The notes under the pieces are model-generated. The model was not told the origin of the DNA and did not search any database. It saw only the letters and a list, made by a program, of their open reading frames with translations. Shown here one piece after another: positions 1,045 to 32,929 of a DNA stretch of 64,000 nt. The translations under genes were made by a program, and so were the position numbers. Each line of letters starts with the position of its first letter. Within the stretch, counting starts at the first letter, position 1. The stretch is from a virus, in IMG/VR virus record IMGVR_UViG_3300018080_000122, positions 32,001-96,000 of that record. One strand, written 5' to 3'.

Positions 1045-2577
1045 ATGGATAAAAGCAAGAGAATACTAGCTGTTTTACGTGCTGATTTGGGTCTGCCTAC
1101 ACTTAATAAAGATAAGAGGCAGGAGTGGGCCGCCAAAAGCACGACGTCCGCAAAGCGCCTACTACAGCAGTCTGACGAGTTTGAACTCATACGGGAACGT
1201 CTGGCCATACTGCGCAACCTCTCCCATCGTGTGCACAACAAAGCAATGACTAGCATTTACTTCACCAAAAAGACTAATTATCTAAAATCCAAGAAAGGTG
1301 AATCTGGAGTAAACGCGCAGTCCCAAGCCTATAGAGATGTGCTGAACGATAATGACGATCCTTTAGCGTCACATCTCAAAGATCAAGGCGTCCCAACAGG
1401 ATTTATAACGACTACAATAAATTTTGTCTCGCAGTGTTACAACAAAACCAAGGAAAAGCAGGTCAACATGGGCGACCAATCTCTACCATCATGGAAGTAC
1501 CCCAGCCCTGTAAGTTTTGCACGAGCGCTGTGGCGTGTAGAGAAGATGGATTATGTAACTATGGACGGTACCGTCAAGAAAGTCGACGCCATACGAGTGC
1601 CTTTGTGGAGCAGAGACGCAGCTAAAGACGCCGGGAGGAAAGGCACTAGTAAATGCTCAGCGTGTATCCCCATATTCCCTCCAACCAAGAACAAAAACGG
1701 TAAGAAGATAGCCCACAACGATTATTGGTGGGCAAGGTTCAAAAAGCTGCTAGATAACGCCAGCGCACAAGGTGGCCTCAAAATAATCTGGGACAAAAAG
1801 AAGAAAAAATGGTGCGCCCTCATATCTGTGTATGAGGACAAAGCAGAGCCGTCCACAAAAAACAAAATCCTTGGAGTAGACATCGGAATCACTAACCCGG
1901 TCGTGTGTGCCGTTGGCCACGGTTGGGGAGTTAAGTTCATAGGGAGCAAGCGAGAAATGCTTAGAAAGAAAGGGTATTTCAAAAATAAAATTAGGGAGTG
2001 CGGCCGCTCCAGCAAGGGCAGAAAGTGGGTTCCTGGTAATGGTGGTCGGGGGTTCAAACGGCGCAACAAAAAAATGATGCAAATACAGAACGCGGCGGCC
2101 AGATACTGTAACACCAAGTGCCAACAATATGCCGCTAAGGTGGTCAAGATGTGCAAGAATTTGGGATGCGGCATCATAGCCATCGAGAAATTCAGAAAAT
2201 CTCCTGTTAAACAAGCCCAGGAGAAGTCCGCCAATGACAGGGGATACGTTGAGAAGAAAGTGCTAATGTGGCGCCCATATCTGATGCATATGGCCATTAT
2301 CAATGCAGCTACTCGCGCAGGTATACAAGTTATTCAGGTAGACGCTGGGTACACATCACAGAGATGCGCGCAATGCGGATGCATACTTAAGGCTAACAGG
2401 GACGTCAATAATGCCCAAGAGTTTTGTTGCCAGAAATGTGGGCATAAAGAAAATGCAGACGTCAATGCTGCCCGTAACGTGGCGCAGCAAGCCGCAGGGG
2501 AGTGGAAGGCCCCCAAAAAGATCAAAACCAAATCCAACGCAAAAAACAAAATCAAGGCCAATAAAAAGATAGGGTAA
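1045..2577 (+). CDS. Compact type V CRISPR effector, Cas12f/TnpB-like RNA-guided nuclease (510 aa)
   Basis: RuvC-I ILGVDIG, RuvC-II IIAIEK, YTSQRCAQCG...CQKCG zinc finger and RuvC-III NADVNAARN; D/E/D triad intact. Starts 73 bp from the array with a strong RBS. Confidence 0.9.
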   Translation: MDKSKRILAVLRADLGLPTLNKDKRQEWAAKSTTSAKRLLQQSDEFELIRERLAILRNLSHRVHNKAMTSIYFTKKTNYLKSKKGESGVNAQSQAYRDVLNDNDDPLASHLKDQGVPTGFITTTINFVSQCYNKTKEKQVNMGDQSLPSWKYPSPVSFARALWRVEKMDYVTMDGTVKKVDAIRVPLWSRDAAKDAGRKGTSKCSACIPIFPPTKNKNGKKIAHNDYWWARFKKLLDNASAQGGLKIIWDKKKKKWCALISVYEDKAEPSTKNKILGVDIGITNPVVCAVGHGWGVKFIGSKREMLRKKGYFKNKIRECGRSSKGRKWVPGNGGRGFKRRNKKMMQIQNAAARYCNTKCQQYAAKVVKMCKNLGCGIIAIEKFRKSPVKQAQEKSANDRGYVEKKVLMWRPYLMHMAIINAATRAGIQVIQVDAGYTSQRCAQCGCILKANRDVNNAQEFCCQKCGHKENADVNAARNVAQQAAGEWKAPKKIKTKSNAKNKIKANKKIG

Positions 2578-2594
2578 TAACGAAAAAAGACTAG

Positions 2595-2618
2595 CAAAAC
2601 GTGTAGTCCTGTTATAAT
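2595..2618 (+). promoter_or_regulatory. Extended -10 sigma70-type promoter
   Basis: CAAAACG-N8-TGTTATAAT in an intergenic gap; the same spacing occurs at 11644-11667. Confidence 0.55.
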
Positions 2619-2860
2619 GTATAGAGCGAACAGGAACCGCAACCAGATGGAGTATTTCAGATCCCAAACCATGTTCAGGTGCACGGATCGTGTGAACTGC
2701 AACCACCGGCGGCAGGTATTCGGTCAAGGTTTGTGGGCGCAAGAGCAGGATAGGCCATGAGGCTCCAGTTCAGCAGACAGGTGGCTCCGCGAGTATTCGT
2801 TGCCGTTGGATGGCTGGCCGTGATGTGGTGGGGATGGGATAACGGCAGACTAGAGATCAG

Positions 2861-3085
2861 GTGGGATTGGAGATGAGCATCTTGCACGATACATCCGTTG
2901 ACTACTACGGCATTTTCGATAAGGCGTCCGCCGCTGATGACATCAACATGGTCGTGGTGGATGTCAGCCTCGATCCAGCGGACGGTCAGTGGCATATCCT
3001 CGTAAGGTCAGACGATCTGGATGTGAGCCGAGCGCGTCGTAGGTGGGAGACTGCTATCGAGAAGCGCAGGATGGAGAAGTCATGA
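2861..3085 (+). CDS. hypothetical protein
   Basis: ORF in a tightly packed plus-strand run; its stop overlaps the next start (ATGA). Confidence 0.55.
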   Translation: MGLEMSILHDTSVDYYGIFDKASAADDINMVVVDVSLDPADGQWHILVRSDDLDVSRARRRWETAIEKRRMEKS

Positions 3086-3486
3086 GCGAACCTCATCAAG
3101 TCAGCGAGCCGGAACCAAATCCTCTCAGCCTCTACCGCGAGAACCAACGCCTTCGTGCAATGATTGCACATATGAAAGACGGCGGATGCCATGCTGCGCA
3201 TCCGGGCGAAATCACCTACGAATGCTCCCTACACATTCCTGGCGGCAAATGTTGGGCGTGTAGAGCACGTGCCGCGATGGAGCCTGAAACAGACAACGAT
3301 TCTCTGCGCCGTGCGATTCGCTTGGTGATTGATGCTGCCGAGACGCTAAGTAGCGCGGCGGGCTACGAGCCCGATGGTGAAGGTGGAATGGACCATCGTG
3401 GTATGTGTCAGCAAGAACTGGATGCTGTAGAGCGCGTGAAGAGATGGCTTGGGCCGAGGCCGATCACACCCGAACTAAGGGACTAG
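3082..3486 (+). CDS. hypothetical protein (Cys/His cluster)
   Basis: ATG at 3082 after a GGAG RBS; contains C..H..C..H..CxxC. Confidence 0.6.
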   Translation: MSEPHQVSEPEPNPLSLYRENQRLRAMIAHMKDGGCHAAHPGEITYECSLHIPGGKCWACRARAAMEPETDNDSLRRAIRLVIDAAETLSSAAGYEPDGEGGMDHRGMCQQELDAVERVKRWLGPRPITPELRD

Positions 3487-3526
3487 TCCTAGAGTGCATC
3501 GATCTACTGGACGCGAGGAATCTGAA

Positions 3527-3733
3527 ATGAGACTGAGCGACAAGAATAGGGAGATCCGTCGAGAGTTCGACCTGGGTAAGCGGTTGGTGATCCGATGCGC
3601 TGATTGCCGTCGCGTAGTCGCGAGCACCCCCTGGGTAGTGCCTACATGGTCTTCGCCTAAAGAAGAAGTCTACGCTTTGTGCGGCTGGTGTAGGAAGCGC
3701 AAGGGGTCAGCCGATGAATCACCGCCTGAATAA
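3527..3733 (+). CDS. small zinc-ribbon protein
   Basis: CADC...CGWC motif pair; GAGG RBS. Confidence 0.55.
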   Translation: MRLSDKNREIRREFDLGKRLVIRCADCRRVVASTPWVVPTWSSPKEEVYALCGWCRKRKGSADESPPE

Positions 3734-3980
3734 ACTCGCTGAAGCACTCTGCATAACGCCGACAAACAACCTGCGTCTCGAACTGTCGCATGTCGGTGGA
3801 AAGCGGGCGTGGTGGCTCTGTGGCTGCAAAGAAGGCGATCAGGCTCTTCCACAGACCGGCAACGCCGAGACAGCCGAGGAAGCCCTGGGGAATGCCGAGA
3901 GATGGCTCGCGCCGGAACTGGATCGTCTGGATTGGGAAGATCGAGAAGCAAAACGGCTGATGTACGAGGGAGAGGAGTGA
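3714..3980 (+). CDS. hypothetical protein
   Basis: ORF overlapping neighbours in operon-like packing. Confidence 0.55.
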   Translation: MNHRLNKLAEALCITPTNNLRLELSHVGGKRAWWLCGCKEGDQALPQTGNAETAEEALGNAERWLAPELDRLDWEDREAKRLMYEGEE

Positions 3981-4360
3981 TGATGAATCTAAACGATGTA
4001 GAGATGGATGATCTGACCCCGTTTAAGCGACCTGTCTGTAGATGGGCAGTTCATCCTGTCATCGACGACGATAAAGTAATCGGTCATGAAGTCCTGCTGC
4101 GGCTCGGATTCCACAAACAATATATTCCGATCACCGAAGACCAAGCCAAAACCCTGAAGGCGATGCATCTAGATGCTTATGGAGCCCAGTGTGCGGCTGA
4201 GTTGGCCAAGAATCCCGTCATGCCGTCCGACGAGAAAGAAATACTTGCTGCCGCTGAGAATTACGAAGCGACAGTGGAGCAGGCTATGGACGACGCAGAA
4301 CGCATGTTGCCGCCGCTTATTGAAGATCTGATGGCTTGTGAGCAGCAGAAGATACGGTAA
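3980..4360 (+). CDS. hypothetical protein
   Basis: GAGGAG RBS followed by ATG; acidic ORF; start trimmed from the 3809 call. Confidence 0.6.
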   Translation: MMNLNDVEMDDLTPFKRPVCRWAVHPVIDDDKVIGHEVLLRLGFHKQYIPITEDQAKTLKAMHLDAYGAQCAAELAKNPVMPSDEKEILAAAENYEATVEQAMDDAERMLPPLIEDLMACEQQKIR

Positions 4361-4363
4361 AAT

Positions 4364-4732
4364 ATGTCACTCAAATGTATAGTCTGTAGCAAAAACATGG
4401 AGTTAGCCACTTTGCCCAACACTAGGCGCGGGCTCGTTCCAGTGCTGGACGGCGTAGTGTGCTACACAAGCGGGTCGTTCGGCTCCAACGTGTTTGAAGA
4501 ACTGAACATCGGCAAGTACACCAGAAAACTGCTGCAGTTTGTTATATGCGACGACTGCCTGAAGAAGAACGCGGACAACATCTTCTTCGTGAAAGAAGTG
4601 ACCACTAAGTCTGTAGTGGACTACATGACTTTAGAGGATTACTGCGCCAGGGAACAGCAGAACCTGAAAGACATGTACAGTAAGCTCGTGTTCAAATCCA
4701 CAGAGAAGAGGAACAAAGATGAAAATACGTAA
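4364..4732 (+). CDS. zinc-finger-containing hypothetical protein
   Basis: CIVC...CDDC motif pair. Confidence 0.65.
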   Translation: MSLKCIVCSKNMELATLPNTRRGLVPVLDGVVCYTSGSFGSNVFEELNIGKYTRKLLQFVICDDCLKKNADNIFFVKEVTTKSVVDYMTLEDYCAREQQNLKDMYSKLVFKSTEKRNKDENT

Positions 4733-5210
4733 CGGATTTGTATCTAATTCTAGCAGCTCAAGTTTTGTGGTGGGGTTTAACCCCGTCCCAGAAACCAAAG
4801 AAGAGTTGAAAGAAATGCTCTGGGGTGACCTAGAAGCCTTGGGAGCCTACGACTACGGCATCACCACCGAAAGGGCAGCTGATATTGTCTGGCAAGACTT
4901 GCAAGAGCAAGAAGGTCCTCTGACTCGTGAAGAGATCATTGCGATGATTTCACAGGACTACATGCCAGAACTAGACGGGCACAAATGGTGGAGCATCACA
5001 GATCTCAAAGAACAAGAAAAGGCCCGCGAGAAATACTACAATAAGAAGATAGAGCGCGCCACAGAATTGGCCAAAGAGATGTTCGAGAAAGCTGGCGAAG
5101 GCACCAAGTTCTTCCAGTTTCGTTACCACGATGATACTTCAAACGGAACTGTGCTCGAACATGGGGACGTCTTCAGGAACGTGCCCAGCTACAGAATAAA
5201 CGAACACTAA
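4719..5210 (+). CDS. GFVSNSSSSSF-motif protein 1 (class A)
   Basis: N-terminus MKIRNGFVSNSSSSSFVVGF. Confidence 0.85.
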   Translation: MKIRNGFVSNSSSSSFVVGFNPVPETKEELKEMLWGDLEALGAYDYGITTERAADIVWQDLQEQEGPLTREEIIAMISQDYMPELDGHKWWSITDLKEQEKAREKYYNKKIERATELAKEMFEKAGEGTKFFQFRYHDDTSNGTVLEHGDVFRNVPSYRINEH

Positions 5211-5219
5211 GGATGAAAA

Positions 5220-5585
5220 ATGAAGATACGAAACGGTTTTGTGTCCAACTCCAGCAGTTCCAGCTTCGTGCTCATCGTCCATCCCAATGATCACAAAAAA
5301 GCTATGGAACAATTCTCAGGACATGAATCTAAGTTCCTGAATGCCTTGGTCTCCTGGCGTAAAGTCCTTGGTGAGTGGGCACGTGTGTTTTCTGGCGAGT
5401 TCAGCACGGAGAACGCGTGTATTGATATAAATAAATTATTCATGATGTGGGAGGGGGATTTCTACAAAAAGCACCCAGAATTCCAGATGTGCTTCGATGA
5501 AATGCGCACGTGCTTCCAAAATTACAGACGGTACGTGACCAAGATCGCCAAATTCAAACCGTTCTATGACGAGAAAGATTACTAG
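5220..5585 (+). CDS. GFVSNSSSSSF-motif protein 2 (class B)
   Basis: N-terminus MKIRNGFVSNSSSSSFVLIV. Confidence 0.85.
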   Translation: MKIRNGFVSNSSSSSFVLIVHPNDHKKAMEQFSGHESKFLNALVSWRKVLGEWARVFSGEFSTENACIDINKLFMMWEGDFYKKHPEFQMCFDEMRTCFQNYRRYVTKIAKFKPFYDEKDY

Positions 5586-5594
5586 GAGATAGAC

Positions 5595-5990
5595 ATGAAG
5601 ACCAGAGACGGGTTCGTATCCAATTCCAGCAGCACCAGCTTCACTGTAGGTTTCAATGGCAAACCTCCAAACAAAAAAGAAATACTAGAAATGTTTGGAG
5701 TTGAGGAGCATTCCCCACTTCGGAGTTTGGCCTGGGAGCTGTCAGACTTCTTCGCGAAACGAATCCGTGATCTGGAGAAACACGAAACGGATTCGAAAGA
5801 CGATTGGGAAAGGGAGTGCGCCGAACGCGACACGAGGCTGTTCAAAGAAGTTGGCCTGACATATCAAGGTTTCTTCAGATGTGAGCGTGATTTCGCGGAG
5901 TGCAATCAGCCCATGGCTGGGTGGGCTATTCCCTGGATAAAGAACGAAAAGCTTTATATTGTCAACCATGAACGGGGAGACATGAGATAG
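5595..5990 (+). CDS. GFVSNSSSSSF-motif protein 3 (class A)
   Basis: N-terminus MKTRDGFVSNSSSTSFTVGF; AGGAG RBS. Confidence 0.85.
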   Translation: MKTRDGFVSNSSSTSFTVGFNGKPPNKKEILEMFGVEEHSPLRSLAWELSDFFAKRIRDLEKHETDSKDDWERECAERDTRLFKEVGLTYQGFFRCERDFAECNQPMAGWAIPWIKNEKLYIVNHERGDMR

Positions 5991-6190
5991 TGCGCTACCG
6001 TGTACGATCATACAGTCATCCCAGTTATGAGGATCTCCCTCACGAAGTCATGATACTTCGCGGGGCCGAAGCCAAGGACCTGTCATTGGTTGTCCCGGTC
6101 ATGTTTGGTATGGGAGCCAAGAAAATCATAATTGAAGACGAAGATGAGTGGCTGGCCGCAGAGAAAAAGGCAGCGGAGGATTGTACATGA
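5990..6190 (+). CDS. hypothetical protein
   Basis: 66-aa ORF filling the gap, with overlapping start and stop. Confidence 0.55.
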   Translation: MRYRVRSYSHPSYEDLPHEVMILRGAEAKDLSLVVPVMFGMGAKKIIIEDEDEWLAAEKKAAEDCT

Positions 6191-6864
6191 AAGTCAGGAA
6201 TGGTTTTGTGAGTAATTCCAGTTCTTCCAGCTTTATAGCGCAGAAGATATATCTGTCCTACATGCATCTTAAAGCCATCAGAGAGCACGGCATTCTCCTC
6301 AAAGACATCTCGCCAACCGACCCTTGGGGTTTTGGTATTGTCTATCCAGATGACTTAGAGCACGACCGCGCCTCAGAAACACCTATAAGTCAGAAGCAGC
6401 TTAGAGAGTGGCACGATCTTCGCTACGCTGATGACGCTTGGATTATTGATGAGACGGATTCCCATATTGCTGGCGCTACCATCATGGATAATTTCAGTTT
6501 CAAATGGTTCCTGCGCGCCATCGGCGTACCAGAAATAGCCTTCATGTGCTTCGAGAATGAGCATTTTGATTGTTGTCACCGTGTCGTTGAAGATATGCTG
6601 ACCAATAGATGTGGGTATAAACAACAAGCGTATCGTTACGACAAGTGGGCAGAAGTGGCCAGCGCAACCGTTTTTGTAGATCCCGAACCCGATGAAGAAG
6701 ATCTTATAGCAGCAATACGTGACGCGATCTACCCTCTTGGAAAAACAATAACAGGCATCAGGAAAGAAATCAAAAGCAAAACGGTTGCGCCATTTAGGAT
6801 TTCGATTATGACTGAAGAGTGGCTCATTAAAAGAAGGGAGGCAATAGATGGGGCTAAGTCATAA
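6187..6864 (+). CDS. GFVSNSSSSSF-motif protein 4 (class C)
   Basis: ATG at 6187 after GGAGGA; N-terminus MKVRNGFVSNSSSSSFIA. Confidence 0.85.
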   Translation: MKVRNGFVSNSSSSSFIAQKIYLSYMHLKAIREHGILLKDISPTDPWGFGIVYPDDLEHDRASETPISQKQLREWHDLRYADDAWIIDETDSHIAGATIMDNFSFKWFLRAIGVPEIAFMCFENEHFDCCHRVVEDMLTNRCGYKQQAYRYDKWAEVASATVFVDPEPDEEDLIAAIRDAIYPLGKTITGIRKEIKSKTVAPFRISIMTEEWLIKRREAIDGAKS

Positions 6865-7186
6865 TATTTATGTCGGCCCGTATCTGCAAATCAAAGGCGC
6901 AGATGATTTGTGGGAAATCCTAGAAGACCTGGGCGAGCGTTTAAGCATCTTCAATCAAGAGTACGGACCCGACGACTATGATTTGGTAACTCCCAACGTG
7001 GATTGGGGAGTTGGTCGGGAGACCTACCTGGACAGGAATTGGTGTGGCGAGATGTTGATGAGCGGCGCCCGCATCGGTAAAGAGAAAGAAGAATTTGCCA
7101 GGTTTTTCTTTACAGACATCTTGAATCTTCAAAACCGATGCGGCAGTGTGATCTTGGAGTGGGGCATTCTAGGAGAGATAATCTAA
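6848..7186 (+). CDS. hypothetical protein
   Basis: GGAGG RBS; acidic 112-aa ORF. Confidence 0.65.
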   Translation: MGLSHNIYVGPYLQIKGADDLWEILEDLGERLSIFNQEYGPDDYDLVTPNVDWGVGRETYLDRNWCGEMLMSGARIGKEKEEFARFFFTDILNLQNRCGSVILEWGILGEII

Positions 7187-7677
7187 TGAAGACCCGCCAC
7201 GGATTTGTTAGCAATTCGAGCAGCTCGTCGTACACGTGTGATCTCTGCGGTGTAGCGCGCGTCTCGTATAATGAAGGCCTAGACGGCACAGAGATGGTCT
7301 ATTGTGTTGGCTGCCACCATACCATATGCGAAGAACATCTTGCAGAACAAGATTTCGCAGGGTGGCTAGCTGAGCGCGAACACGCGCTTAAAAGAATAGG
7401 AGATGATATTACACTTGCACTTGAACAAGAAGAGTATGACTTGCTGGCGCGGCTGGCCAAGACCGCGTCTGACATAAAGCAGGACGTGAATAGCCCGCGC
7501 GATCCAAACACGGTGACGCCACAGTGGTGCCCCATATGCCAGATGGAGCGCCTACCGAATGTTCTGCTATTCCGGTACCTAACCAAAATTCAAAACACTC
7601 ACCTGGATATCATCCTTGGAGAGATCCAAGAAAGATTTTCTGACTATGAGTCTTTCATGAAGTTCATTGAAGGCTAG
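7186..7677 (+). CDS. GFVSNSSSSSF-motif protein 5 (class D, zinc-binding)
   Basis: TAATG overlap; MKTRHGFVSNSSSSSYTCDLCG, C..H..C..H and CPIC. Confidence 0.85.
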   Translation: MKTRHGFVSNSSSSSYTCDLCGVARVSYNEGLDGTEMVYCVGCHHTICEEHLAEQDFAGWLAEREHALKRIGDDITLALEQEEYDLLARLAKTASDIKQDVNSPRDPNTVTPQWCPICQMERLPNVLLFRYLTKIQNTHLDIILGEIQERFSDYESFMKFIEG

Positions 7678-7692
7678 ATAAAGGAGGTAAAA

Positions 7693-8187
7693 ATGAAGAT
7701 CCGGCATGGTTTTGTATCAAATTCCAGTAGTTCAAGTTTCGTGTGCGAAGTTTGCGGTCATTCAGAAGTGAGCTACGCAGACCCTGAAGACATGGTCTAC
7801 TGTGAAGATAAGGCCCACCTGTTCTGTAAAGAGCATTTGGTTGGAGTGGATTTAAACGACTGGATAGAAGAGCAGCGAAAAGAACTTCAGCGACTGAAAG
7901 AGAAGGTTGCCGAAGCGGTTGAAAATGATCTATACCATTTGGTGCAGTCTCTTACCAGGGAGATCAACCACATAAAAAATAAGATGGCAAGGGGGCGCCC
8001 AGAAAGTGAAAATGGCGACGGCCACGTCCCGTCGTCCCAGTGCCCACTATGCCAAATGACGGAATTCCATGACCGCATTCTACTCAACTATCTCATGAAG
8101 AAGCACAACACGGACAAGAAGACCATCACTGCAGCAATTCGAGGGCAATACAAAACTTACAAGGATGTTCAAGATTCTTTATCCTGA
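7693..8187 (+). CDS. GFVSNSSSSSF-motif protein 6 (class D, zinc-binding)
   Basis: AAGGAGG RBS; MKIRHGFVSNSSSSSFVCEVCG, HLFCKEH and CPLC. Confidence 0.85.
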   Translation: MKIRHGFVSNSSSSSFVCEVCGHSEVSYADPEDMVYCEDKAHLFCKEHLVGVDLNDWIEEQRKELQRLKEKVAEAVENDLYHLVQSLTREINHIKNKMARGRPESENGDGHVPSSQCPLCQMTEFHDRILLNYLMKKHNTDKKTITAAIRGQYKTYKDVQDSLS

Positions 8188-8202
8188 GCCAAGGAGATTT
8201 TT

Positions 8203-8787
8203 ATGAAAGTACGCTATGGTTTCGTTTCAAATTCCAGCAGTTCATCCTTTACATGTGATGTGTGCGGCCACAATGCTTCTGGGTGGGACATGGATTGTGC
8301 TGAAGCGCAGATATTCCTATGTGAAAATGGCCACTCTATTTGCTACGAGCACGGGCTCATATCAGACAGGTTCAAAAAATACATGGTCGACCTGAAAGCC
8401 GGTATTGAAAAGGCCATAAAAGATGATGATTTCGAAAGCCTGGATAAGTACCGCTCTGACTGTGTCTACATTGAGAACCTTGCAGGGGCCACCGAGACGT
8501 TAGAAGAAATTCAGGATTTCCTGGAAGATCCAACAATGGCCAATATTCCTAAAATTGGGGATTATCGTGATGAGATGCTTTATGCCGCCCCCGCAGATGT
8601 ATGCCCTATATGCGCCATAAAGAACATCGACATCCATACTATGGCCAGATACCTCCTCCTGAAAACCGGGCAGACGGCGCGAGAAGTAGCTTCAGAGATG
8701 TGCGACGCCTTCGTATCTCACAAGAAAATGCACGAGAAGCTGCGTGAAGTGGATTTACCAAAACACACCGTGGAAGTAGTTAAGTAG
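8203..8787 (+). CDS. GFVSNSSSSSF-motif protein 7 (class D, zinc-binding)
   Basis: AAGGAG RBS; MKVRYGFVSNSSSSSFTCDVCG, HSICYEH and CPIC. Confidence 0.85.
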   Translation: MKVRYGFVSNSSSSSFTCDVCGHNASGWDMDCAEAQIFLCENGHSICYEHGLISDRFKKYMVDLKAGIEKAIKDDDFESLDKYRSDCVYIENLAGATETLEEIQDFLEDPTMANIPKIGDYRDEMLYAAPADVCPICAIKNIDIHTMARYLLLKTGQTAREVASEMCDAFVSHKKMHEKLREVDLPKHTVEVVK

Positions 8788-8801
8788 GAAGGAGACTAGC
8801 C

Positions 8802-9185
8802 GTGAACATTATTCTGGAGGGCATCAACAGAGAGTTCACCATCTGGTGGACATATCTCGATGACCGCCCAAAAGATAAGTTGGATCTCATAACTGCCATG
8901 CATGCCGTTGGCCAGATATATAGAGAGGGCGCGCGGAAGATAATGTGCACCCTATTTGACAATACTAGAGAAGTGGCATGGACCGGGTTCGCTCAATGTT
9001 CCTCTTCAGACCATTTCTCCAAACCGGCTGGGCGTAAAATAAGCCTCACCAGAGCCCTGGCCAATTCCGACATCGACAAGCCCATAAGAACCAAGATCTG
9101 GAAAGAGGTCGCGAAGACGTCCCCGAAGACACTCAGATGCAGCGTAGGCCACATACAGACGAGAGGATCCAAAAGTGAAGATTAG
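8802..9185 (+). CDS. phage hypothetical protein
   Basis: AAGGAG RBS; GxAxCxxxDxFxxxxGRxIxLxRA pattern of a type seen in small phage proteins. Confidence 0.65.
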   Translation: MNIILEGINREFTIWWTYLDDRPKDKLDLITAMHAVGQIYREGARKIMCTLFDNTREVAWTGFAQCSSSDHFSKPAGRKISLTRALANSDIDKPIRTKIWKEVAKTSPKTLRCSVGHIQTRGSKSED

Positions 9186-9570
9186 ATCAGGTTTTGTCAG
9201 CAACAGCAGCACCAGCTCTTTCATTCTGATTGTGACGGAAGACGCTCATCAAGGGGTCCTAAAGCACATACCAGAAGAGTACCATCCAATGTTAAACTAT
9301 GGATTTAGGGAGACCAAAGTCTTTGGGCGGCCCGCTAGGGTATTCACGATCCTTTCAGATCACGGTGGCAGTTACTCCAGCATGTGCTTGGAATATTGCC
9401 GCGAGGACATCAGTTTCCCTTGCCCTCCACCCAAGATTCAGCCTGAAGGCATGGACCTACCAAGACGGGCGCAAGAACCTGAGTGTGAGTACGAGCTGAA
9501 GAATGCCTACGAAGAAATCCTCAAAATAGTCGCCCCAGACGGGTTTTTTTCCAAGAGTATTGGCGATTAA
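9175..9570 (+). CDS. GFVSNSSSSSF-motif protein 8 (class B)
   Basis: GTG start; MKIRSGFVSNSSTSSFILIV; KVFGRPARVF resembles KVLGEWARVF in protein 2. Confidence 0.85.
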   Translation: MKIRSGFVSNSSTSSFILIVTEDAHQGVLKHIPEEYHPMLNYGFRETKVFGRPARVFTILSDHGGSYSSMCLEYCREDISFPCPPPKIQPEGMDLPRRAQEPECEYELKNAYEEILKIVAPDGFFSKSIGD

Positions 9571-9573
9571 TCC

Positions 9574-9601
9574 TTGCGCTAACCAAATCTCTTGCTACGA
9601 T
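9574..9601 (+). promoter_or_regulatory. Putative sigma70-type promoter for the radical SAM gene
   Basis: TTGCGC-N16-TACGAT with an extended TG; shares TCTCTTGCTA with the promoter at 11654-11663. Confidence 0.45.
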
Positions 9602-9634
9602 ATTACCAGAGCAAAACAGAAAAGGAGGCAATTA

Positions 9635-10705
9635 ATGAATCGTCAGGTGATTACTGTAGAGGGATTTGGTGACGTCACCATTGCAGATTCCGAATACGCC
9701 AAGGTGATTAGGTCCGAAAACTACAACATGGGGTTCAACAAAATCACTGGATATATGGCCAGGTGGGGGAAAACTCACGATGACGATCCAGACTACGGCC
9801 CCGGACCAGAGTTGCTTGACATAGAGATTAGCGTCAATGACTGCCCCAACAATTGCCGTTTTTGTTACAAGGGCAACACGAGTGAGCCCGGCAGGCACAT
9901 GTCGCTGGAGACCTTCAAGCGCGTCATGCAAGGTATGCCCAAGACGGTGACGCAGATCGCCTTTGGCATAACAGGATTGAAGGCTAACCCAGACTTTATT
10001 CCTATCCTGAAGCATTGTAGGGATCTGGGCATCGTTCCCAATTTCACCCTGTCAGGCGTAGGTCTCGACGAAGACTTTGCGCACCAGGTAGTGCCCCTTG
10101 TTGGCGCGGTCGCTGTCAGTGCCTACGAATCCGACAAGAACGTGTGTTACAACGCGGTGGAGATGCTTAGCCGCCATATCGACCAGACGAACATCCACTT
10201 GCTCATATGTAAGGAGACCGTGCCTTTCGTGGAGGAAGTTCTGGAAGACATTTGCCACGACCAAAGGCTTGCGAAACTTAGAGCAGTGGTATTCCTCTGT
10301 CTGAAACCGAAGGGGCGGGCTGCTGGCAGGTTCCACCAACCGTCGCAGGCAGACTACGATAAGGTCATCAACTACTGCTTGGAGAGGGATATCAGGTTTG
10401 GTTTCGATTCGTGCGGTGCGCCCAAATTTGAAGAATCCGTGATTGCCTCCAAAGCGTTGAAGGCACATCAGAAGCAGCAGCTCATCCAGTGTTCGGAGCG
10501 GTGCGAATCGTTCGGCATGTTTAGTGCCTACATCAACGTTGATGGTAAGTACTATCCGTGCTCATTCTGCGAAGACGAACCGGGGTGGGAAGACGGCTTA
10601 GAATTTGACAATTTCCTGACCGACGTGTGGCTGTCCGACAAAGTAAAGGCGTGGCGCGATAAGGCTTTGTCAGCCAAACGCGAATGCGTGATGTTCGATC
10701 TGTGA
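9635..10705 (+). CDS. Radical SAM protein with SPASM/Twitch-like C-terminal domain
   Basis: CPNNCRFC (CxxxCxxC); C-terminal CES...YINVDGKYYPCSFC...C; AAGGAGG RBS before ATG 9635. Confidence 0.92.
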   Translation: MNRQVITVEGFGDVTIADSEYAKVIRSENYNMGFNKITGYMARWGKTHDDDPDYGPGPELLDIEISVNDCPNNCRFCYKGNTSEPGRHMSLETFKRVMQGMPKTVTQIAFGITGLKANPDFIPILKHCRDLGIVPNFTLSGVGLDEDFAHQVVPLVGAVAVSAYESDKNVCYNAVEMLSRHIDQTNIHLLICKETVPFVEEVLEDICHDQRLAKLRAVVFLCLKPKGRAAGRFHQPSQADYDKVINYCLERDIRFGFDSCGAPKFEESVIASKALKAHQKQQLIQCSERCESFGMFSAYINVDGKYYPCSFCEDEPGWEDGLEFDNFLTDVWLSDKVKAWRDKALSAKRECVMFDL

Positions 10706-10723
10706 CCAAGGAGACGACGGGCA

Positions 10724-10939
10724 ATGCTGACGCTAGGAGAAAAGTTATTCATTGCTGACCAGGTGATCGTGTTCACCAAAAAGATGTTTGAGGTAGAAGG
10801 GCCTCTGGCCCAGCACTGGAATGAGTTGGACAGAGACGGTGAGCACGAAAAGTGCGACAGACTAACTGCAGAGGCGCGCAATTTCTGTCACCACCTGCGT
10901 GCACACGTACGCCAGGCCATCGAGAGGGGGCGTCTGTAG
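10724..10939 (+). CDS. hypothetical protein
   Basis: AAGGAG RBS, 71 aa. Confidence 0.6.
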   Translation: MLTLGEKLFIADQVIVFTKKMFEVEGPLAQHWNELDRDGEHEKCDRLTAEARNFCHHLRAHVRQAIERGRL

Positions 10940-11177
10940 CCGTGTGGTATCTTACTAAGGTGTGGTTGTCCTGGCTGTGGCCGCCCAACGCTATCAATTT
11001 CATAAAATTCGTAATGGAAGATGATGGGGGCGCTGGCTCAGGACCGGCGTTAGCCCGAGGCGCATTGGCCCTTTTCGGCTGCCCACTGGCGTTGCTGGCC
11101 ATGCTGATTAGCGCTAGTATAGTAATTGGCGTGGCAGCTGTAATAGTCACAACGATAGTAAAGTAAAGGAGGGAACA

Positions 11178-11564
11178 ATGTGGACGCGTTTGATAAAGCT
11201 GGAATGTGATTTGTGTGGCAAAACCGTTACAGTAGAAAACCACAATCCCACTTCCGTGCCGCTTCCAAGCGACTGGAGGAAGTGGAGCGATATATCGACG
11301 CGCAAACTACTATGCAGCAAACGGTGCAAAGATCTCCATACGGAGATGACTGAAACCATAGCCGCAAAAACTGGAGAGTTAGAAGTGCGTGTAAAAGCCC
11401 GGTTCAAACAACTGGCAACGGGCCAAATTAGAATGCCAGAATGTCATGGATGCGGCGACGAAGTCCCCACTCCTCTGTTGGGGTCGGACGAGCAGGAGTA
11501 CTGCAAGGAATGCTGGAGCGAGAAGTATGACGACAACGGGCTCCCTAAAACATCCAAAACTTGA
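11178..11564 (+). CDS. Cys-rich zinc-finger hypothetical protein
   Basis: AGGAGG RBS; CDLC, CSKRC, CHGC and CKEC. Confidence 0.7.
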   Translation: MWTRLIKLECDLCGKTVTVENHNPTSVPLPSDWRKWSDISTRKLLCSKRCKDLHTEMTETIAAKTGELEVRVKARFKQLATGQIRMPECHGCGDEVPTPLLGSDEQEYCKECWSEKYDDNGLPKTSKT

Positions 11565-11643
11565 AGAGGCACATCAACTAGTCATACCAGCAGTAACAGC
11601 ATAGCACCAATCCATTACAGAAAATACCTAGAAAACACGTGCC

Positions 11644-11667
11644 CAAAACGCGCTCTCTTGCTATAAT
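11644..11667 (+). promoter_or_regulatory. Extended -10 promoter for the DNA metabolism operon
   Basis: CAAAACG-N8-TGCTATAAT. Confidence 0.6.
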
Positions 11668-11704
11668 ACTAAGGAGCACGGGACACAAGAGACAAGGACA
11701 TGAT

Positions 11705-14551
11705 GTGCCAGGACGACTAGACTCGATGGTTTGGATACCTCGCAACGATCTTCCAGACTATTCTATAGACGCCTCCGACCTGAAACTAAAATACCAATCT
11801 GGTTATGGTGCTTCAGAACGAGTAGAAACTCTGAAGCTATACGTGCCAGAAAAACTGGTGGTGGGCATTCCGAGAGCTTACTTCTACCGTGCTGCTGGTA
11901 GCGCGGCAGGAAGTGTAAAAGACTGTAGAACGCGGGGGCGACACGTCAAGTTCCCTTTCAAGAGCACCCTCCGACCTAACCAAGTTGAAATCACGGACAC
12001 CTTTTATAAGCACCTTATAGACTCCCCTCATAATGGCGGTATCTTATGTGCACCCTGTGGCGCTGGCAAAACGGTCATGGCGTTGCATACCATTGCCAGG
12101 CTTGAGCGCTCTACCTTAGTCATTGTCCACACGTCAAGACTGCTTAATCAATGGATTGAGCGCATAGAAGAGCACATGGGAATCACAGCAGGGGTCATTA
12201 GAGAAGACGCTTTCGAGACGGACGCAGACATTGTAGTGGCAATGTTGCAAACTTTGCTGTCCAGGGGATACACAGCGAAAGACTTGAGCATGTTCGGCAC
12301 TTGTGCCGTGGACGAAACCCATCGCGTTGCAGCGCCCACGTGGTCTAGCGTTATCAAATCCCTTCCTATGAAATACCGTTTGGGTCTCACAGCGACTCCA
12401 AGACGATCAGACAAACTCGACAACGCTTTTTTCTTTCATATAGGGAAAGTGCTGGCCAAATCTGAAAAGAGAGAAATGAAGCCTCGCATTTATTTTGTCA
12501 ATACTAACGTGGGATTCAGGGTGCCCATGCTGGGAAACGGCAAAGTGAACAGAGCCCGCGCATTGAATATCCTGGCCAAGAATAAAGAGCGAAACCGTAA
12601 GATATCCAAAGAAATAGTCAAAGCTATAAAGTCGGACCGAGTGATTCTGGTATTATCTGACCGCATGGAGCTGCTGTATCATCAACGTAGACTATTAAAG
12701 GAACGGGATATCCCAGACGACAAGATAGGTTGGGTAGTAGGAGCCCACTGGGCAGGCGTTGATCCTGATGACCCATCAGAAGACCTTGAACAAGAAAGAA
12801 CCGCTAGCGGGCCTCCCAAGGCCGTCCTGCGGGCTGTCAAGAAGATAGTTCAAGAGCACGCGCCTCACGAGGAAGTCACGGTGGAAGGAAAGTGGATATT
12901 CGTCAGTGGCGCCAATACGCTTCCAATAGATGATTTGCTTGCGATACCAGGGCTCACAAAAGGTAAATACAAAGGGAACACAATAGGACTGGCAACTAAA
13001 ATAGTTGGTGGGCAGCCCAAAACAGTGAAGATCCCAGAAGCGCAGATGAAGGAAAACCAAAAGAGACAAATACTTTTGGCCACATTTGGGCTTGCCTGTG
13101 TAGATATAAATACTAATATTGTCGACCCATTGACTGGGCATAGCAATCTTCTAAGAGACCTAATAGGCACCAAACCAGAAATCGTGAGTGCCAGTAACTG
13201 CACAGGAAAATTAGTAACGGCGTCTTGTGTCGCTTATTCTGGAATAAAGGAGTGTGTAAAAGTCACTATTGCAGACAACTCGTTAGTGTTGTCAAACGAT
13301 CATTTAGTCTTCACACACAGAGGGAAAGTGCCAGCGGGGGATCTTACCACACAAGACTACATACTGCGGCCACGTATTGTAAAATGCCCCACAAGAAGCA
13401 TAGATGTAGACAAAGACGACATGTGGCTGGCGGGCATGCTATTGGGTGACGGGGCTATATCACAAATACACAAAAGGATAGCGCAGGTTATAAATGCCGA
13501 TGAAGAGGTTTTGGAACATGTTTCCAGTATTTTAAATAACAGAGGAATGCTAATCAAAAAAGTAAAGTGCAGGGACTACCACTACTGGATACGTTCTAAA
13601 AAAGGTAAGGCTGGGCGCGGAGCGAAGACATGGCTACGCAGATTTGTTGAACGTTGGGGCCTTTCAAACACAGCAAGATTTAAACATATACCTATAGAAT
13701 GGATGATGTCAAGCACCCACCTTATTAAATCTTTGCTTGGCGGGTTGTTTGCGTCGGACGGACATGTAGACAATAGGGGAACACCCGGATTCTCAAGTTC
13801 CAGCCGCAGAATGGCAGAACAAGTTCGTTTCTTGCTGTGGAGGTTGGGACTGCAATCCACTATACGTAAATCTGAAAGCACGTGGTCGATTGGGGTACCA
13901 GCCAGTAGTGCTTTGCGTCTAGACATTGATTGGCGCATAACAAGAAAAGCCAATAGACTTGACGAGCACAACCGTATGCATAACAAGTTATCTTTGGGCA
14001 CTTGGAATAAAATACCTGTACATCTGGTTTTGCGCATTAAAGAGATAGCTAAGACCAAGGGCGTCAAAATAGAAGAAATGATTAGGTTATGCAGGAAATA
14101 CGGCTACGCTGCGACTAACCTACGCCATAATCAACTAGAGGTAACTTACGAAGTAGCGTCTCTGCTAATGGAAATTCTCGGAGTAGAGGATGCTCCAGAA
14201 TTACAAAATATTAAAAATTTCCATTTTATGCCTGTGCTGAATATTGAAACGGTTGGGCCTAGACCAGTAGGAGATATGACAGTACCAGGACTGCACCGTT
14301 GGGTGACGAACGGTATGTTAATACATAACAGCGAAGGGCTCGATATCCCCGCCGTTGACGTTTTAGTATTAGCAACACCACGGTCGGACGTGGAGCAGGC
14401 TGTCGGTCGTGCTCTTAGAACACTTCCGGGTAAGAAGCAGCCGATAATAGTTGATTTTGTAGACGCTGCCTCGTATTTCCAAGCGCTAAAGGGTAAGAGG
14501 CGAAGGCAGTATCGCAAGCTGGGCTACGAAGTAGTAGAAACGAGGTCATAA
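11705..14551 (+). CDS. Superfamily 2 (UvsW/A18-like) DNA helicase interrupted by an intein
   Basis: LRPNQ, APCGAGKT (Walker A), DETH, GLTATPRRSD, SEGLDIP and QAVGRALR. Start placed at GTG 11705, downstream of the promoter and an AAGGA RBS. Confidence 0.9.
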   Translation: MPGRLDSMVWIPRNDLPDYSIDASDLKLKYQSGYGASERVETLKLYVPEKLVVGIPRAYFYRAAGSAAGSVKDCRTRGRHVKFPFKSTLRPNQVEITDTFYKHLIDSPHNGGILCAPCGAGKTVMALHTIARLERSTLVIVHTSRLLNQWIERIEEHMGITAGVIREDAFETDADIVVAMLQTLLSRGYTAKDLSMFGTCAVDETHRVAAPTWSSVIKSLPMKYRLGLTATPRRSDKLDNAFFFHIGKVLAKSEKREMKPRIYFVNTNVGFRVPMLGNGKVNRARALNILAKNKERNRKISKEIVKAIKSDRVILVLSDRMELLYHQRRLLKERDIPDDKIGWVVGAHWAGVDPDDPSEDLEQERTASGPPKAVLRAVKKIVQEHAPHEEVTVEGKWIFVSGANTLPIDDLLAIPGLTKGKYKGNTIGLATKIVGGQPKTVKIPEAQMKENQKRQILLATFGLACVDINTNIVDPLTGHSNLLRDLIGTKPEIVSASNCTGKLVTASCVAYSGIKECVKVTIADNSLVLSNDHLVFTHRGKVPAGDLTTQDYILRPRIVKCPTRSIDVDKDDMWLAGMLLGDGAISQIHKRIAQVINADEEVLEHVSSILNNRGMLIKKVKCRDYHYWIRSKKGKAGRGAKTWLRRFVERWGLSNTARFKHIPIEWMMSSTHLIKSLLGGLFASDGHVDNRGTPGFSSSSRRMAEQVRFLLWRLGLQSTIRKSESTWSIGVPASSALRLDIDWRITRKANRLDEHNRMHNKLSLGTWNKIPVHLVLRIKEIAKTKGVKIEEMIRLCRKYGYAATNLRHNQLEVTYEVASLLMEILGVEDAPELQNIKNFHFMPVLNIETVGPRPVGDMTVPGLHRWVTNGMLIHNSEGLDIPAVDVLVLATPRSDVEQAVGRALRTLPGKKQPIIVDFVDAASYFQALKGKRRRQYRKLGYEVVETRS
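13097..14329 (+). mobile_element. Intein with LAGLIDADG homing endonuclease (411 aa)
   Basis: Begins CVDINT, block B SNDHLVFT, LAGMLLGDG and LLGGLFASDG, ends MLIHN followed by S. Removal restores helicase motif V ATFGLA-SEGLDIP. Confidence 0.92.
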
Positions 14552-30955: not shown

Positions 30956-32929
30956 TTACGCCTCGTCTACCCGCCAGATGACAAAGTAGTCATCCAACGT
31001 GGGTGTGTGTTCTGTGTCCGTCGTGGTCAGATTGAATCGGACTTTCAGATTCTTTTTGTTGTCCCACGCTTCTGAAGCGTCCGCAGTTTCCAGAACGCCT
31101 CCAGCAGTAGTTTGCCACCAGTCCACCGCACGAGGAATCCCCAATCCAGTTTTCCAGTGGTTGCCGCCGTCCAAGGAAATGTCCATGCTGAGCGAGGTGA
31201 ATGGCGCTTCAAAACCATTCACATAAGGAAGGATTTCGTAGACGTCCAATCCATTCTGGATGACCTGTGCGTAGGATGTCAAACTGCCCGACGTATCGTA
31301 GATGGGGTTACTCACGCGCCGCCAGTTGTCCAGATTGCAGGTGTACGAAGTGCTCTTGCGAGTCAGCCTGAAATAGCAGTAGTACACAGACCCCCGACTA
31401 GCCGAACTGATATCGAAGATCGCGGTTTCCCAGTTAGTGCTGGATGTGGTGTAATAAAAATACTGTATCGGTGATCCACTAGAATAGAGCCCGAATTGCA
31501 CTTGCACGTTTGGAATACTGGTCTTGATGTCGATTTTCACAGCGCCATAGGATGACCAATCTTGGTAACTACCTATATTTTTTCGGATGCCGTACCAGAG
31601 CTGCTCTGTCCCTGTAGAGGTGTGGGTCATCTTCAACGAGCCTGTACCCTCATTATAGACCGAGGTGTCCAGAGCAAATGCACCATCTCCAGAGTACCAG
31701 ACTTCGTACCAGGGTGGTGTCGCGACAGCGTCGAGCGCGTCATACTGCGTGTCCGTCGTATTGGCATCCAAAGTAACTTCGCCACCAACGACCGAGATAT
31801 CTGCACTGCTCTCGATCTTTGATGAGTCCGCGAAGAAATCCACCAACGCGTTGCTCGCGTCGTCGAGACGGATATAGGTTTCGTCGTCTCCAAGAAAGGC
31901 TGCGACCAGGTGGTTGGCCAGACAGCCGCATTGAAAGCGGTCCATGTAACGCCCAGCAATAACCAGTTTGGAACCCGCAGCCTGGGAGATCTTGGATACC
32001 TCGATTTCAGCCCCAGTCAAGATTACTTGATCCGTGGCGTCCTCCATCAAGATGGACCAAGTGCCGGGGTCATTGACCTTGACCGACCAACATTTGACTT
32101 CGCCGCCGTCTTTGGTCCGTATACCGACGTCGGGGTCGTCGATACGTAGACCCCACATATGGATCTCGGAATGATCGGCGTAGAGCCCCTCGTCAAAAGT
32201 TCCATCGAGAGTGCAATTCCAAATACGAACCGTGCTGTTATCTTCCGCTTTTACGCCGTAATCTCCGCCAGACGCTTGGTGAGAAATCCGCAAACCGTTG
32301 CCGTGAAATCTGGCCTCGTCAACGTGAATCGCCTTCTTTACCCCCGAGAAACTGACCGTGTTGGCCATCACAGAGGCCAAAGGCTCTTCTACTTTAATTC
32401 CTTTATCAAAGTTGGAGATCTGCATGTTCACCAATTGCCAGAACTGGTAAGTGGTGGGGTTACCTGGGTCTGCCTTTATAGCAGTTTCGTTGCTGCTGTC
32501 TCCGTCCAGGAAAATCCCCATCATGCCGCCAACGGAAACGGCGCCCATTCCTGTTGGAGTGGCAAACAAATCGTTATCGGGGTCACTGGGTTTGATGCAA
32601 ACCGCGAAAGGACCATCACCAGTGAACTGGGTCAGAGTTGGAAGAGTGAGGGCGCCACCAGAATTGTCTTCCGTGTAGACTCCCGCCCCAATCCGAATAC
32701 ACCAGTATTCGTCGGATGGTTTAGTCAATCGCAGAGATATTGCGGCCGCGACCGTCTTGAACGGTTTGGTCTGTGTGCCATCTTCTGTGTAGCTGTCCGT
32801 GCGCTTTTCCACATAAATGGTGTGGGAACCGGAGGCCGAAAATGGGATTTCGAGATATTCCGCAGCGGCCACAACCCCATCACCATCGGGATCGTACTGC
32901 TCCTGAGTCATAATGGGATTGCATTCCAT
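30956..32929 (-). CDS. Tailspike-like parallel beta-helix protein with putative carbohydrate-binding module
   Basis: IYV..DGTQTKPFKTV..GAGVYTE cap, GI-x beta-helix repeats and aromatic CBM-like C-terminus (EGTGSLK, DWSSY, WET). Confidence 0.7.
   Translation of the reverse strand: MECNPIMTQEQYDPDGDGVVAAAEYLEIPFSASGSHTIYVEKRTDSYTEDGTQTKPFKTVAAAISLRLTKPSDEYWCIRIGAGVYTEDNSGGALTLPTLTQFTGDGPFAVCIKPSDPDNDLFATPTGMGAVSVGGMMGIFLDGDSSNETAIKADPGNPTTYQFWQLVNMQISNFDKGIKVEEPLASVMANTVSFSGVKKAIHVDEARFHGNGLRISHQASGGDYGVKAEDNSTVRIWNCTLDGTFDEGLYADHSEIHMWGLRIDDPDVGIRTKDGGEVKCWSVKVNDPGTWSILMEDATDQVILTGAEIEVSKISQAAGSKLVIAGRYMDRFQCGCLANHLVAAFLGDDETYIRLDDASNALVDFFADSSKIESSADISVVGGEVTLDANTTDTQYDALDAVATPPWYEVWYSGDGAFALDTSVYNEGTGSLKMTHTSTGTEQLWYGIRKNIGSYQDWSSYGAVKIDIKTSIPNVQVQFGLYSSGSPIQYFYYTTSSTNWETAIFDISSASRGSVYYCYFRLTRKSTSYTCNLDNWRRVSNPIYDTSGSLTSYAQVIQNGLDVYEILPYVNGFEAPFTSLSMDISLDGGNHWKTGLGIPRAVDWWQTTAGGVLETADASEAWDNKKNLKVRFNLTTTDTEHTPTLDDYFVIWRVDEA

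Follow-up and report, generated by a model that had tools for sequence, protein, structure and literature searches.

A 64,000-nucleotide stretch of a virus genome (the window; positions 32,001 to 96,000 of IMG/VR record IMGVR_UViG_3300018080_000122) carries eight genes whose products share a 16-residue N-terminal tag, followed directly by a gene for a radical SAM (S-adenosylmethionine) enzyme. The link between tag and enzyme is close to obligatory across phage lineages, from either side, and the tag is a portable module found on unrelated protein bodies, not a strand of one fold. It is very probable that the two are functionally coupled. A first-pass annotation of this DNA had proposed a portable tag serving one modifying enzyme. 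The portability and the two-way linkage to a radical SAM clade held up; that the enzyme would covalently modify the tag is argued from their co-occurrence and from precedent in the enzyme class, and is moderately probable.

A peptide scan of IMG/VR gave 487 stretches with the tag, and 78 tag-seeded loci were analysed. A homolog of the enzyme was encoded within 10 kb of the tag in 44 of the 78 (33 of the 52 loci with full flanks), and the gap between enzyme and tagged open reading frame (ORF) was 1 kb or less in 35 of these 44. In Vibrio phage D479 the distances between the enzyme and the five tagged genes range from 1.7 to 10.5 kb. The enzyme was found elsewhere on the contig in 18 of the remaining 34, and in 10 of the 11 contigs that are at least 90% complete and have no enzyme nearby. 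In the reverse direction, tagged ORFs lay within 10 kb in 77 of the 80 loci seeded with enzyme motifs (75 with canonical tags and two with a variant carrying His at position 7); the other three are one complete 321 kb genome, with about eleven tagged ORFs elsewhere, and two fragments. Tagged proteins rarely occur without the enzyme, so the objection anticipated in the first-pass annotation, that the motif might be common where the enzyme is missing, fails. No third conserved gene was found in the 78 tag loci, and neither a protease nor an exporter was conserved in them.

The tag is rare in cellular genomes. Its pattern occurred only 111 times in 185,579 prokaryote genomes, and most of the 18 confirmed loci lie on contigs of metagenome-assembled genomes; among the 18 is a contig of 178 kb from a Flagellimonas assembly. 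The enzyme was present in each of the five cases tested for it, in four of them on the tag's own contig. Neighbours of the enzyme clade and of the body of tagged protein 1 in the ESM Atlas are almost exclusively viral.

In the window, the eight tagged ORFs were verified on the plus strand at 4719, 5220, 5595, 6187, 7186, 7693, 8203 and 9175 (the last with GTG as start codon), spanning 4719-9570, and have the common N-terminus MK[IVT]RxGFVSNSS[ST]SS[FY]. A degenerate DNA pattern for FVSNSSSSS[FY] matched eight times in the window and not once in 100 shuffles, confirming the cluster as first annotated; no extra copies were found across the whole 115.6 kb contig. The radical SAM gene was likewise seen where it had been reported, 64 bp after the last tagged ORF, with a CxxxCxxC motif and a Cys-bearing C-terminus. 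The genes are as follows (aa, amino acids; cluster numbers refer to the clustering of tag-free bodies described below).

4719-5210, plus strand: tagged protein 1, 163 aa; commonest body family (cluster 0, phrog_7397), with invariant D138, LEHGD (147-150) and C-terminal His.
5220-5585, plus strand: tagged protein 2, 121 aa, isoelectric point 8.8; body a singleton in the clustering.
5595-5990, plus strand: tagged protein 3, 131 aa; weak fit to cluster 5.
6187-6864, plus strand: tagged protein 4, 225 aa; cluster 1 (26 members, 25 loci).
7186-7677, plus strand: tagged protein 5, 163 aa; cluster 2, a Cys/His zinc-ribbon-like body abutting the tag.
7693-8187, plus strand: tagged protein 6, 164 aa; cluster 2, modelled with AlphaFold.
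8203-8787, plus strand: tagged protein 7, 194 aa; cluster 2.
9175-9570, plus strand: tagged protein 8, 131 aa, GTG start; body a singleton in the clustering.
9635-10705, plus strand: radical SAM enzyme, 356 aa from ATG (alternative TTG start at 9560); phrog_7293.

The bodies behind the tag had at first been sorted into four groups. Proteins 5 to 7 are indeed related to one another (BLAST 9e-22, 2e-3 and 8e-4), but the two proposed pairs were not borne out: protein 3 fits cluster 5 better than the family of protein 1, and no relatedness between proteins 2 and 8 was detectable by BLAST.

The same diversity was found at large. The 78 loci hold 361 tagged ORFs, from 1 to 15 per 20 kb, all of which share the strand of the tagged seed ORF in their locus. 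Their products are 80 to 290 aa long (median 139 aa), and the core of the tag begins six residues past the start Met in 356 of 369 cases. After removal of the tag, 321 unique proteins fell into 105 BLAST clusters, and hhalign comparisons among the 14 largest gave a best probability of 9.8%, so that no homology was found between them. Searched against 1.84 billion proteins, a 32-column profile of the tag had matches at E ≤ 0.001 in 27,035 representatives of clusters made at 50% identity; some of those near the threshold may be false, and the tag stands at residue 1 in nearly all of the 150 best matches listed. Some proteins (P0120-P0128) have two complete tags each, the second internal yet preceded by Met. 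These look like read-through fusions of adjacent tagged genes, or the product of gene calling under another genetic code.

Two of the window proteins were modelled with AlphaFold. Protein 1 is predicted to have an alpha/beta fold (predicted local distance difference test, pLDDT, 91) and protein 6 a small zinc-ribbon-like sheet with a long helical hairpin (pLDDT 85). Foldseek searches of the PDB with the two models gave no credible relative (best E 2.0 and 0.15), nor did a BFVD fold search (Foldseek best E 0.11 for the model of protein 1); the best VIA match for protein 1 (Z 5.2) was driven by one long helix. It could be supposed that the motif is the first strand and loop, possibly the active site, of one fold in a single divergent paralog family, since in the commonest family the tag is paired with an invariant Asp, LEHGD and C-terminal His reminiscent of a site for catalysis or metal binding, and strand 1 of both models is formed by the S-S-F-hydrophobic end of the tag (about residues 13-20). 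However, residues 1-10 have low confidence in both models (47 and 60) and lie outside the fold, D138, LEHGD and the terminal His are confined to the family of protein 1 and missing from the others, no profile homology was found between the clusters and the two models differ in fold. That the motif is a strand of one common fold, an outcome that the first-pass annotation had itself named as one that would refute its proposal, is thus largely refuted and has become very improbable.

Selection acts on the tag as a peptide and not as DNA, because the eight window copies are 84% identical in amino acids (0.84), compared with 0.67 in nucleotides and 0.43 at third codon positions. Synonymous change in the tags is free. 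S12 is encoded by AGY in all eight window copies; the idea that one serine is always AGY-encoded was rejected, as across 327 tags each Ser position uses both codon classes.

Conservation of individual residues was followed in 552 tags. At positions left free in the search, residue 9 is Ser in 550 and residue 10 Asn in all 552; the search patterns prescribed S11 and S12, whose invariance is therefore assumed. Position 7 is aromatic in 542 (98%), Leu being fixed there in one lineage, and K2 and R4 are invariant. A glycyl radical at R-x-G-F was considered and rejected, since whole lineages replace G6 by Ser, Asp, Lys, Ala or Cys.

Rare variants at positions 6 and 7 are fixed genome-wide despite the differing bodies behind them: Asp6 in 5 of 5 tags, non-Gly6 in 4 of 4, Leu7 in 7 of 7 (one contig) and His7 in 4 of 4. 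The variant lineages, with His7, Leu7 (together with Ser6) or Asp6, are those of loci L117/L118 (tags at 9520-11927), L069 and L125 (on the same contig) and L087. Pairs of tags in the same locus that share a rare residue numbered 32 at position 6, against a shuffle mean of 5.8 (maximum 17), and 18 at position 7, where the shuffle mean was 1.9 and the maximum 13; in 2000 shuffles neither count was ever attained. Tags of one genome are expected to be kept alike if one genome-encoded partner reads them, and the fixation of rare variants across a genome points to such a shared reader. Shared ancestry of the tags, or gene conversion between them, could contribute to the likeness.

These patterns bear on whether the tag might be a signal for stability or expression (a degron, a protective end or a context for translation initiation) read by host machinery, with the enzyme unrelated. 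Its fixed position at the extreme N-terminus and the invariant K2 and R4 would suit such a signal. Conservation is at the level of the peptide, however, and host machinery explains neither the two-way link to a phage-borne enzyme nor the lineage variants fixed by genome, which makes this explanation highly unlikely.

The enzyme appears to belong to a class that modifies peptides and proteins. Its Pfam score for SPASM is above the cut-off (23.5 bits against 21.5) and that for Radical_SAM is below it (25.4 against 29.5), the latter rising to 59.8 bits for a plasmid homolog; it also matches phrog_7293 (4.5e-66). In an alignment of 31 homologs C70 is more than 90% conserved, and C74 and C77 are invariant (CxxxCxxC with variable first spacing; C-P-N-N-C-R-F-C in the window), which places the enzyme, as judged by sequence, in the radical SAM superfamily, where such a motif or a variant of it, at the beginning of a partial TIM barrel, holds the [4Fe-4S] cluster that binds SAM. 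SPASM domains are defined by a C-terminal seven-Cys pattern that includes CX2CX5CX3C and binds two auxiliary Fe-S clusters, whereas Twitch domains bind one (PMC10114670). CX2CX5CX3C is absent from the alignment of 31 homologs, which has only four conserved C-terminal Cys (C260, C290, C309 and C351); this fits a single auxiliary cluster, Twitch-like rather than the canonical two-cluster SPASM. A conserved extension of about 45 residues precedes the core (Y-N-Y-x-F ... T-G-x-F-x-R-W-G ... D-D-P). It is presumably too short for the standard recognition element of peptides that are made by ribosomes and modified after translation (RiPPs). The nearest structures in the PDB are PqqE (1e-3, single sequence), SkfB (2e-4, profile) and BtrN (0.03, profile), and it is the weak profile matches to these, with CxxxCxxC and the SPASM match, that suggest the class; the top matches of the enzyme profile, designer PPR (pentatricopeptide) repeats, were set aside as spurious. 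The NCBIfam models for FxsB, HxsB, XyeB and GrrM did not match the enzyme at E ≤ 0.1.

Tag and enzyme are also found in bacterial operons. A tblastn search of plasmids with the phage enzyme revealed proteins 30 to 34% identical over about 90% of their length in Agrobacterium, Rhodobacter and Rhizobium. Three operons (two from Agrobacterium, one from Rhodobacter) were translated and each encodes a SMEK_N + NACHT protein, one or two small genes and the enzyme.

NZ_CP048524 (locus L195): operon 3593-8029, tagged small gene 6596-6991.
NZ_CP023549 (locus L196): operon 3547-8002, tagged small gene 6565-6963.
NZ_CP011248 (locus L197): operon 1583-6035, tagged small gene 4601-4996.

The SMEK_N + NACHT protein matches the PADLOC models for Avs2 (8e-27), and in all three operons the small gene directly upstream of the enzyme starts MK[IL]K[LM]DFVSNSSSTSF. 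The description of the system as phage-encoded therefore holds for phages but is incomplete, since these Avs2-like STAND operons on bacterial plasmids carry both the tag and a homologous enzyme. Beyond the tag, the bacterial bodies resemble phage cluster 5, whose profile aligns with them along its whole length (hhalign 79%, E 1.7e-5, 98 columns), in contrast to seven other phage clusters (at most 1.7%). Window protein 3 matches the profile of cluster 5 weakly (18.9 bits), and its likeness to the Agrobacterium tagged protein runs past the tag to about residue 58 (G-V-E-x-S-P). From this likeness, protein 3 may be a phage mimic of the STAND partner. No STAND gene lies beside the window cluster, and PADLOC found no match in the window enzyme and three tagged proteins.

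A similar architecture is known from the anti-phage operon KpAvs2-Avap1-Avap2 (Bechon et al. 2024), which, like the plasmid operons, combines an Avs2-type STAND NTPase with a small accessory protein (Avap2) and a radical SAM protein (Avap1) (PMC11564622). KpAvs2 requires Avap2, which binds it, and the roles of Avap1 and Avap2 are not understood (PMC11564622). The likeness to the plasmid operons is one of described architecture, and KpAvs2 has a STAND partner whereas the window cluster is without an adjacent one. DUF6375 was not matched by HMMER in the window genome or in the plasmid small proteins; a search of 401 sampled genomes also gave no match, but its controls were unmatched as well, making it uninformative.

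The bacterial operons also bear on an alternative raised in the first-pass annotation, that the tag is a signal for targeting or assembly, to the virion or another compartment, with the enzyme linked for other reasons. T4 internal proteins follow the same cassette logic, an N-terminal signal on varied cargo, and like the capsid-targeting sequence of T4 the tag is short, portable and placed exactly at the start of diverse small proteins in the variable, hyperplastic regions of large phages, including T4-like ones. The two sequences differ, however: that of T4 ends in an L/I-x-E site, cut by the prohead protease, on proteins that are present in virions, and the tag has no such site and no Glu at all. 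Nor have the plasmid STAND operons a capsid to be targeted to, and their occurrence weakens the proposal. In the window phage the tagged genes lie in the replication (early) block, on the strand opposite the structural genes, and a targeting signal leaves the near-obligatory tie to one enzyme clade unexplained. Targeting is therefore improbable.

In the mechanism proposed here, the window holds the phage copy of a widespread two-part system, in which one Twitch/SPASM-type radical SAM enzyme would serve a changeable set of clients whose sole common part is the tag, M-K-x-R-x-G-F-V-S-N-S-S-S-S-S-F. The enzyme would bind each client by the free arm at its N-terminus (about residues 1-12), and the enzyme's 5'-deoxyadenosyl radical would abstract hydrogen from an invariant residue, most likely within S9-S12, making a covalent change on the tag that the clients require. 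The accessible, presumably invariant candidates are S9, N10, S11 and S12. By analogy with known enzymes the candidate chemistries can be ranked as oxidation of Ser to an aldehyde, a C-C or ether cross-link within F-V-S-N, and epimerisation, each of which is, taken singly, a tentative suggestion at best. Oxidation is put first because it has the best precedent for Ser in whole proteins, the anaerobic sulfatase-maturating enzyme (anSME), which abstracts a hydrogen from C-beta of Ser to give formylglycine (PMC10114670). A cross-link at F-V-S has in its favour that 98% of tags have an aromatic residue at position 7, giving an 'FxS' string as in FxSxx/FxsB systems, but the lineage with Leu7 in every copy argues against an obligatory aromatic partner.

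Several observations weigh against modification of the tag. A complete phage genome of 224.8 kb with terminal repeats (L051, IMGVR_UViG_3300029288_000001) has a single tagged ORF but lacks radical SAM genes altogether, and its orphan tag is not explained by an enzyme-substrate model. In T4-like phages the two tagged genes, all annotated 'hypothetical', are about 20 kb from the enzyme; three such records are probably RB43, RB16 and KP15. In Citrobacter phage Margaery (KT381880.1, 66.5-70.9 kb, locus L096) the gene run that holds the two tagged genes has a gene for a 748-aa protein between them, and here too some 20 kb separate them from the radical SAM gene. NCBIfam shows no family-level match of the enzyme to characterised maturases, only weak N-terminal matches, far below cut-off, to models for a tungsten-cofactor maturase and PqqE. 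Finally, Avap1 is needed against T2 but dispensable against SECphi18 (PMC11564622); should KpAvs2 be truly related, some functions may do without modification.

Tagged proteins might instead be adaptors or regulators, the tag docking the enzyme to many targets (host proteins, nucleic acids or small molecules) or regulating it while remaining chemically unchanged. Co-occurrence and the co-variation of tags within genomes suit a docking handle equally well, the bodies include zinc-ribbon-like and other likely binding domains, and Avap2 binds the NLR-like protein KpAvs2 irrespective of any need for the radical SAM partner (PMC11564622). By contrast, the nearest detectable relatives of the enzyme are SPASM/Twitch maturases of peptides or small molecules (SkfB, PqqE, BtrN), for which a co-encoded peptide is the substrate, and a flexible arm bearing invariant small hydroxyl residues in a row resembles a reaction site more than a docking surface. 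Docking without chemistry is, on this evidence, rather unlikely.

In kind, the proposed system is a known one: a SPASM/Twitch radical SAM maturase encoded beside its substrates. With anSME and AtsB it would share a SPASM-group radical SAM enzyme acting on whole proteins, a short Ser motif near the N-terminus and one enzyme for several clients. However, the (C/S)-x-(P/A)-x-R motif of anSME/AtsB substrates is absent from the tag, so that the window system is not a member of this group; anSME has two auxiliary clusters, whereas the window enzyme has only the four conserved C-terminal Cys and no family-level sequence match, and the window system is phage-borne with clients of unrelated folds.

Resemblance to the SPASM/Twitch maturases of RiPPs (SkfB, PqqE, StrB/SuiB, FxsB) lies in the class of enzyme, the adjacent presumed substrates and a conserved segment joined to a variable remainder. 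RiPP precursors are short, whereas the clients here have 80 to 290 aa and two modelled families (163 and 164 aa) fold confidently; in addition, the conserved segment is N-terminal and is itself the likely reaction site. The features of RiPP clusters (a short leader-core precursor, a protease or exporter) were not found in the tag loci. The core of the tag, F-V-S-N-S, literally matches 'FxSxx', and FxSxx peptides with a radical SAM-SPASM enzyme have been described in STAND-associated conflict systems (PMC7159879); FxsB-type enzymes form cyclophanes (PMC10114670). In FxsB/FxSxx-COOH systems and for other three-residue cyclophane synthases, however, the motif has an aromatic first residue and is at or near the C-terminus of a short peptide, whereas the tag is at the N-terminus of proteins, which sets it outside that group. 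The tie of the tag to a radical SAM enzyme and its presence in bacterial operons likewise separate it from the capsid-targeting sequence of T4.

No description of the tag came up when the full-text literature was searched for the motif string or for radical SAM in phages of the RB43/KP15 type. The novelty is one of form and scale: an N-terminal tag of 16 residues on whole proteins that belong to over 100 unrelated families, together with an enzyme clade found virus-wide and, in NLR-like operons, a sister module.

The window genome is that of a myovirus-like phage, and the tag cluster sits in its plus-strand replication and recombination (early) block, with a helicase gene directly downstream and genes for a UvsX-like recombinase and an exonuclease within a few kb. 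Baseplate and virion genes are on the minus strand. Scans of the cluster for promoters and terminators gave match frequencies not above those of shuffles. Neither the DNA of the region nor protein 1 matched the INPHARED phage collection, in which relatives were found only with the enzyme.

Between the tagged genes are three ORFs without the tag, and some of them overlap the ends of their neighbours.

5990-6190, plus strand: untagged ORF, no Pfam match.
6848-7186, plus strand: untagged ORF, no Pfam match and no homolog in the 78 related loci.
8802-9185, plus strand: untagged ORF, no homolog in the 78 related loci.

Further out, the ResIII/DEAD-type helicase (11639-14551, plus strand) is split by an intein that includes a homing endonuclease of the LAGLIDADG type (Pfam LAGLIDADG_3 8.4e-15; the Intein_splicing match is weak). 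Upstream of the cluster is a TnpB/Cas12f-like protein (1045-2577, plus strand) with OrfB_IS605 and Cas12f1-like TNB domains.

The role of the clients probably lies in phage-host conflict, a speculation drawn from their location in the early/replication block, their diversity and fast evolution and the homologous Avs2-type pair. A wider proposal, which is possible and decidedly tentative, is that tag and maturase make a new covalent modification of whole folded proteins used by both phage and bacterium: bacteria would mature the partner of an Avs2-type sensor, and phages a fast-changing early arsenal, some members of which (the cluster 5 type, including window protein 3) would mimic that partner to disarm or evade the sensor.

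If the tag is modified, leader-guided maturation of peptides would have a counterpart at the level of proteins, in which hundreds of unrelated protein families are served by one enzyme. About 27,000 protein clusters without annotation (50% identity) bear the tag, so that a large part of phage 'dark matter' could become approachable; the system might also yield a small, genetically encodable tag for enzymatic modification of proteins. The proposal is directly testable, as there are culturable hosts for RB43, RB16, KP15 and related phages of Klebsiella, Enterobacter, Citrobacter and Cronobacter. In bacteria, it could account for the unexplained radical SAM accessory genes in NLR-like immune operons.

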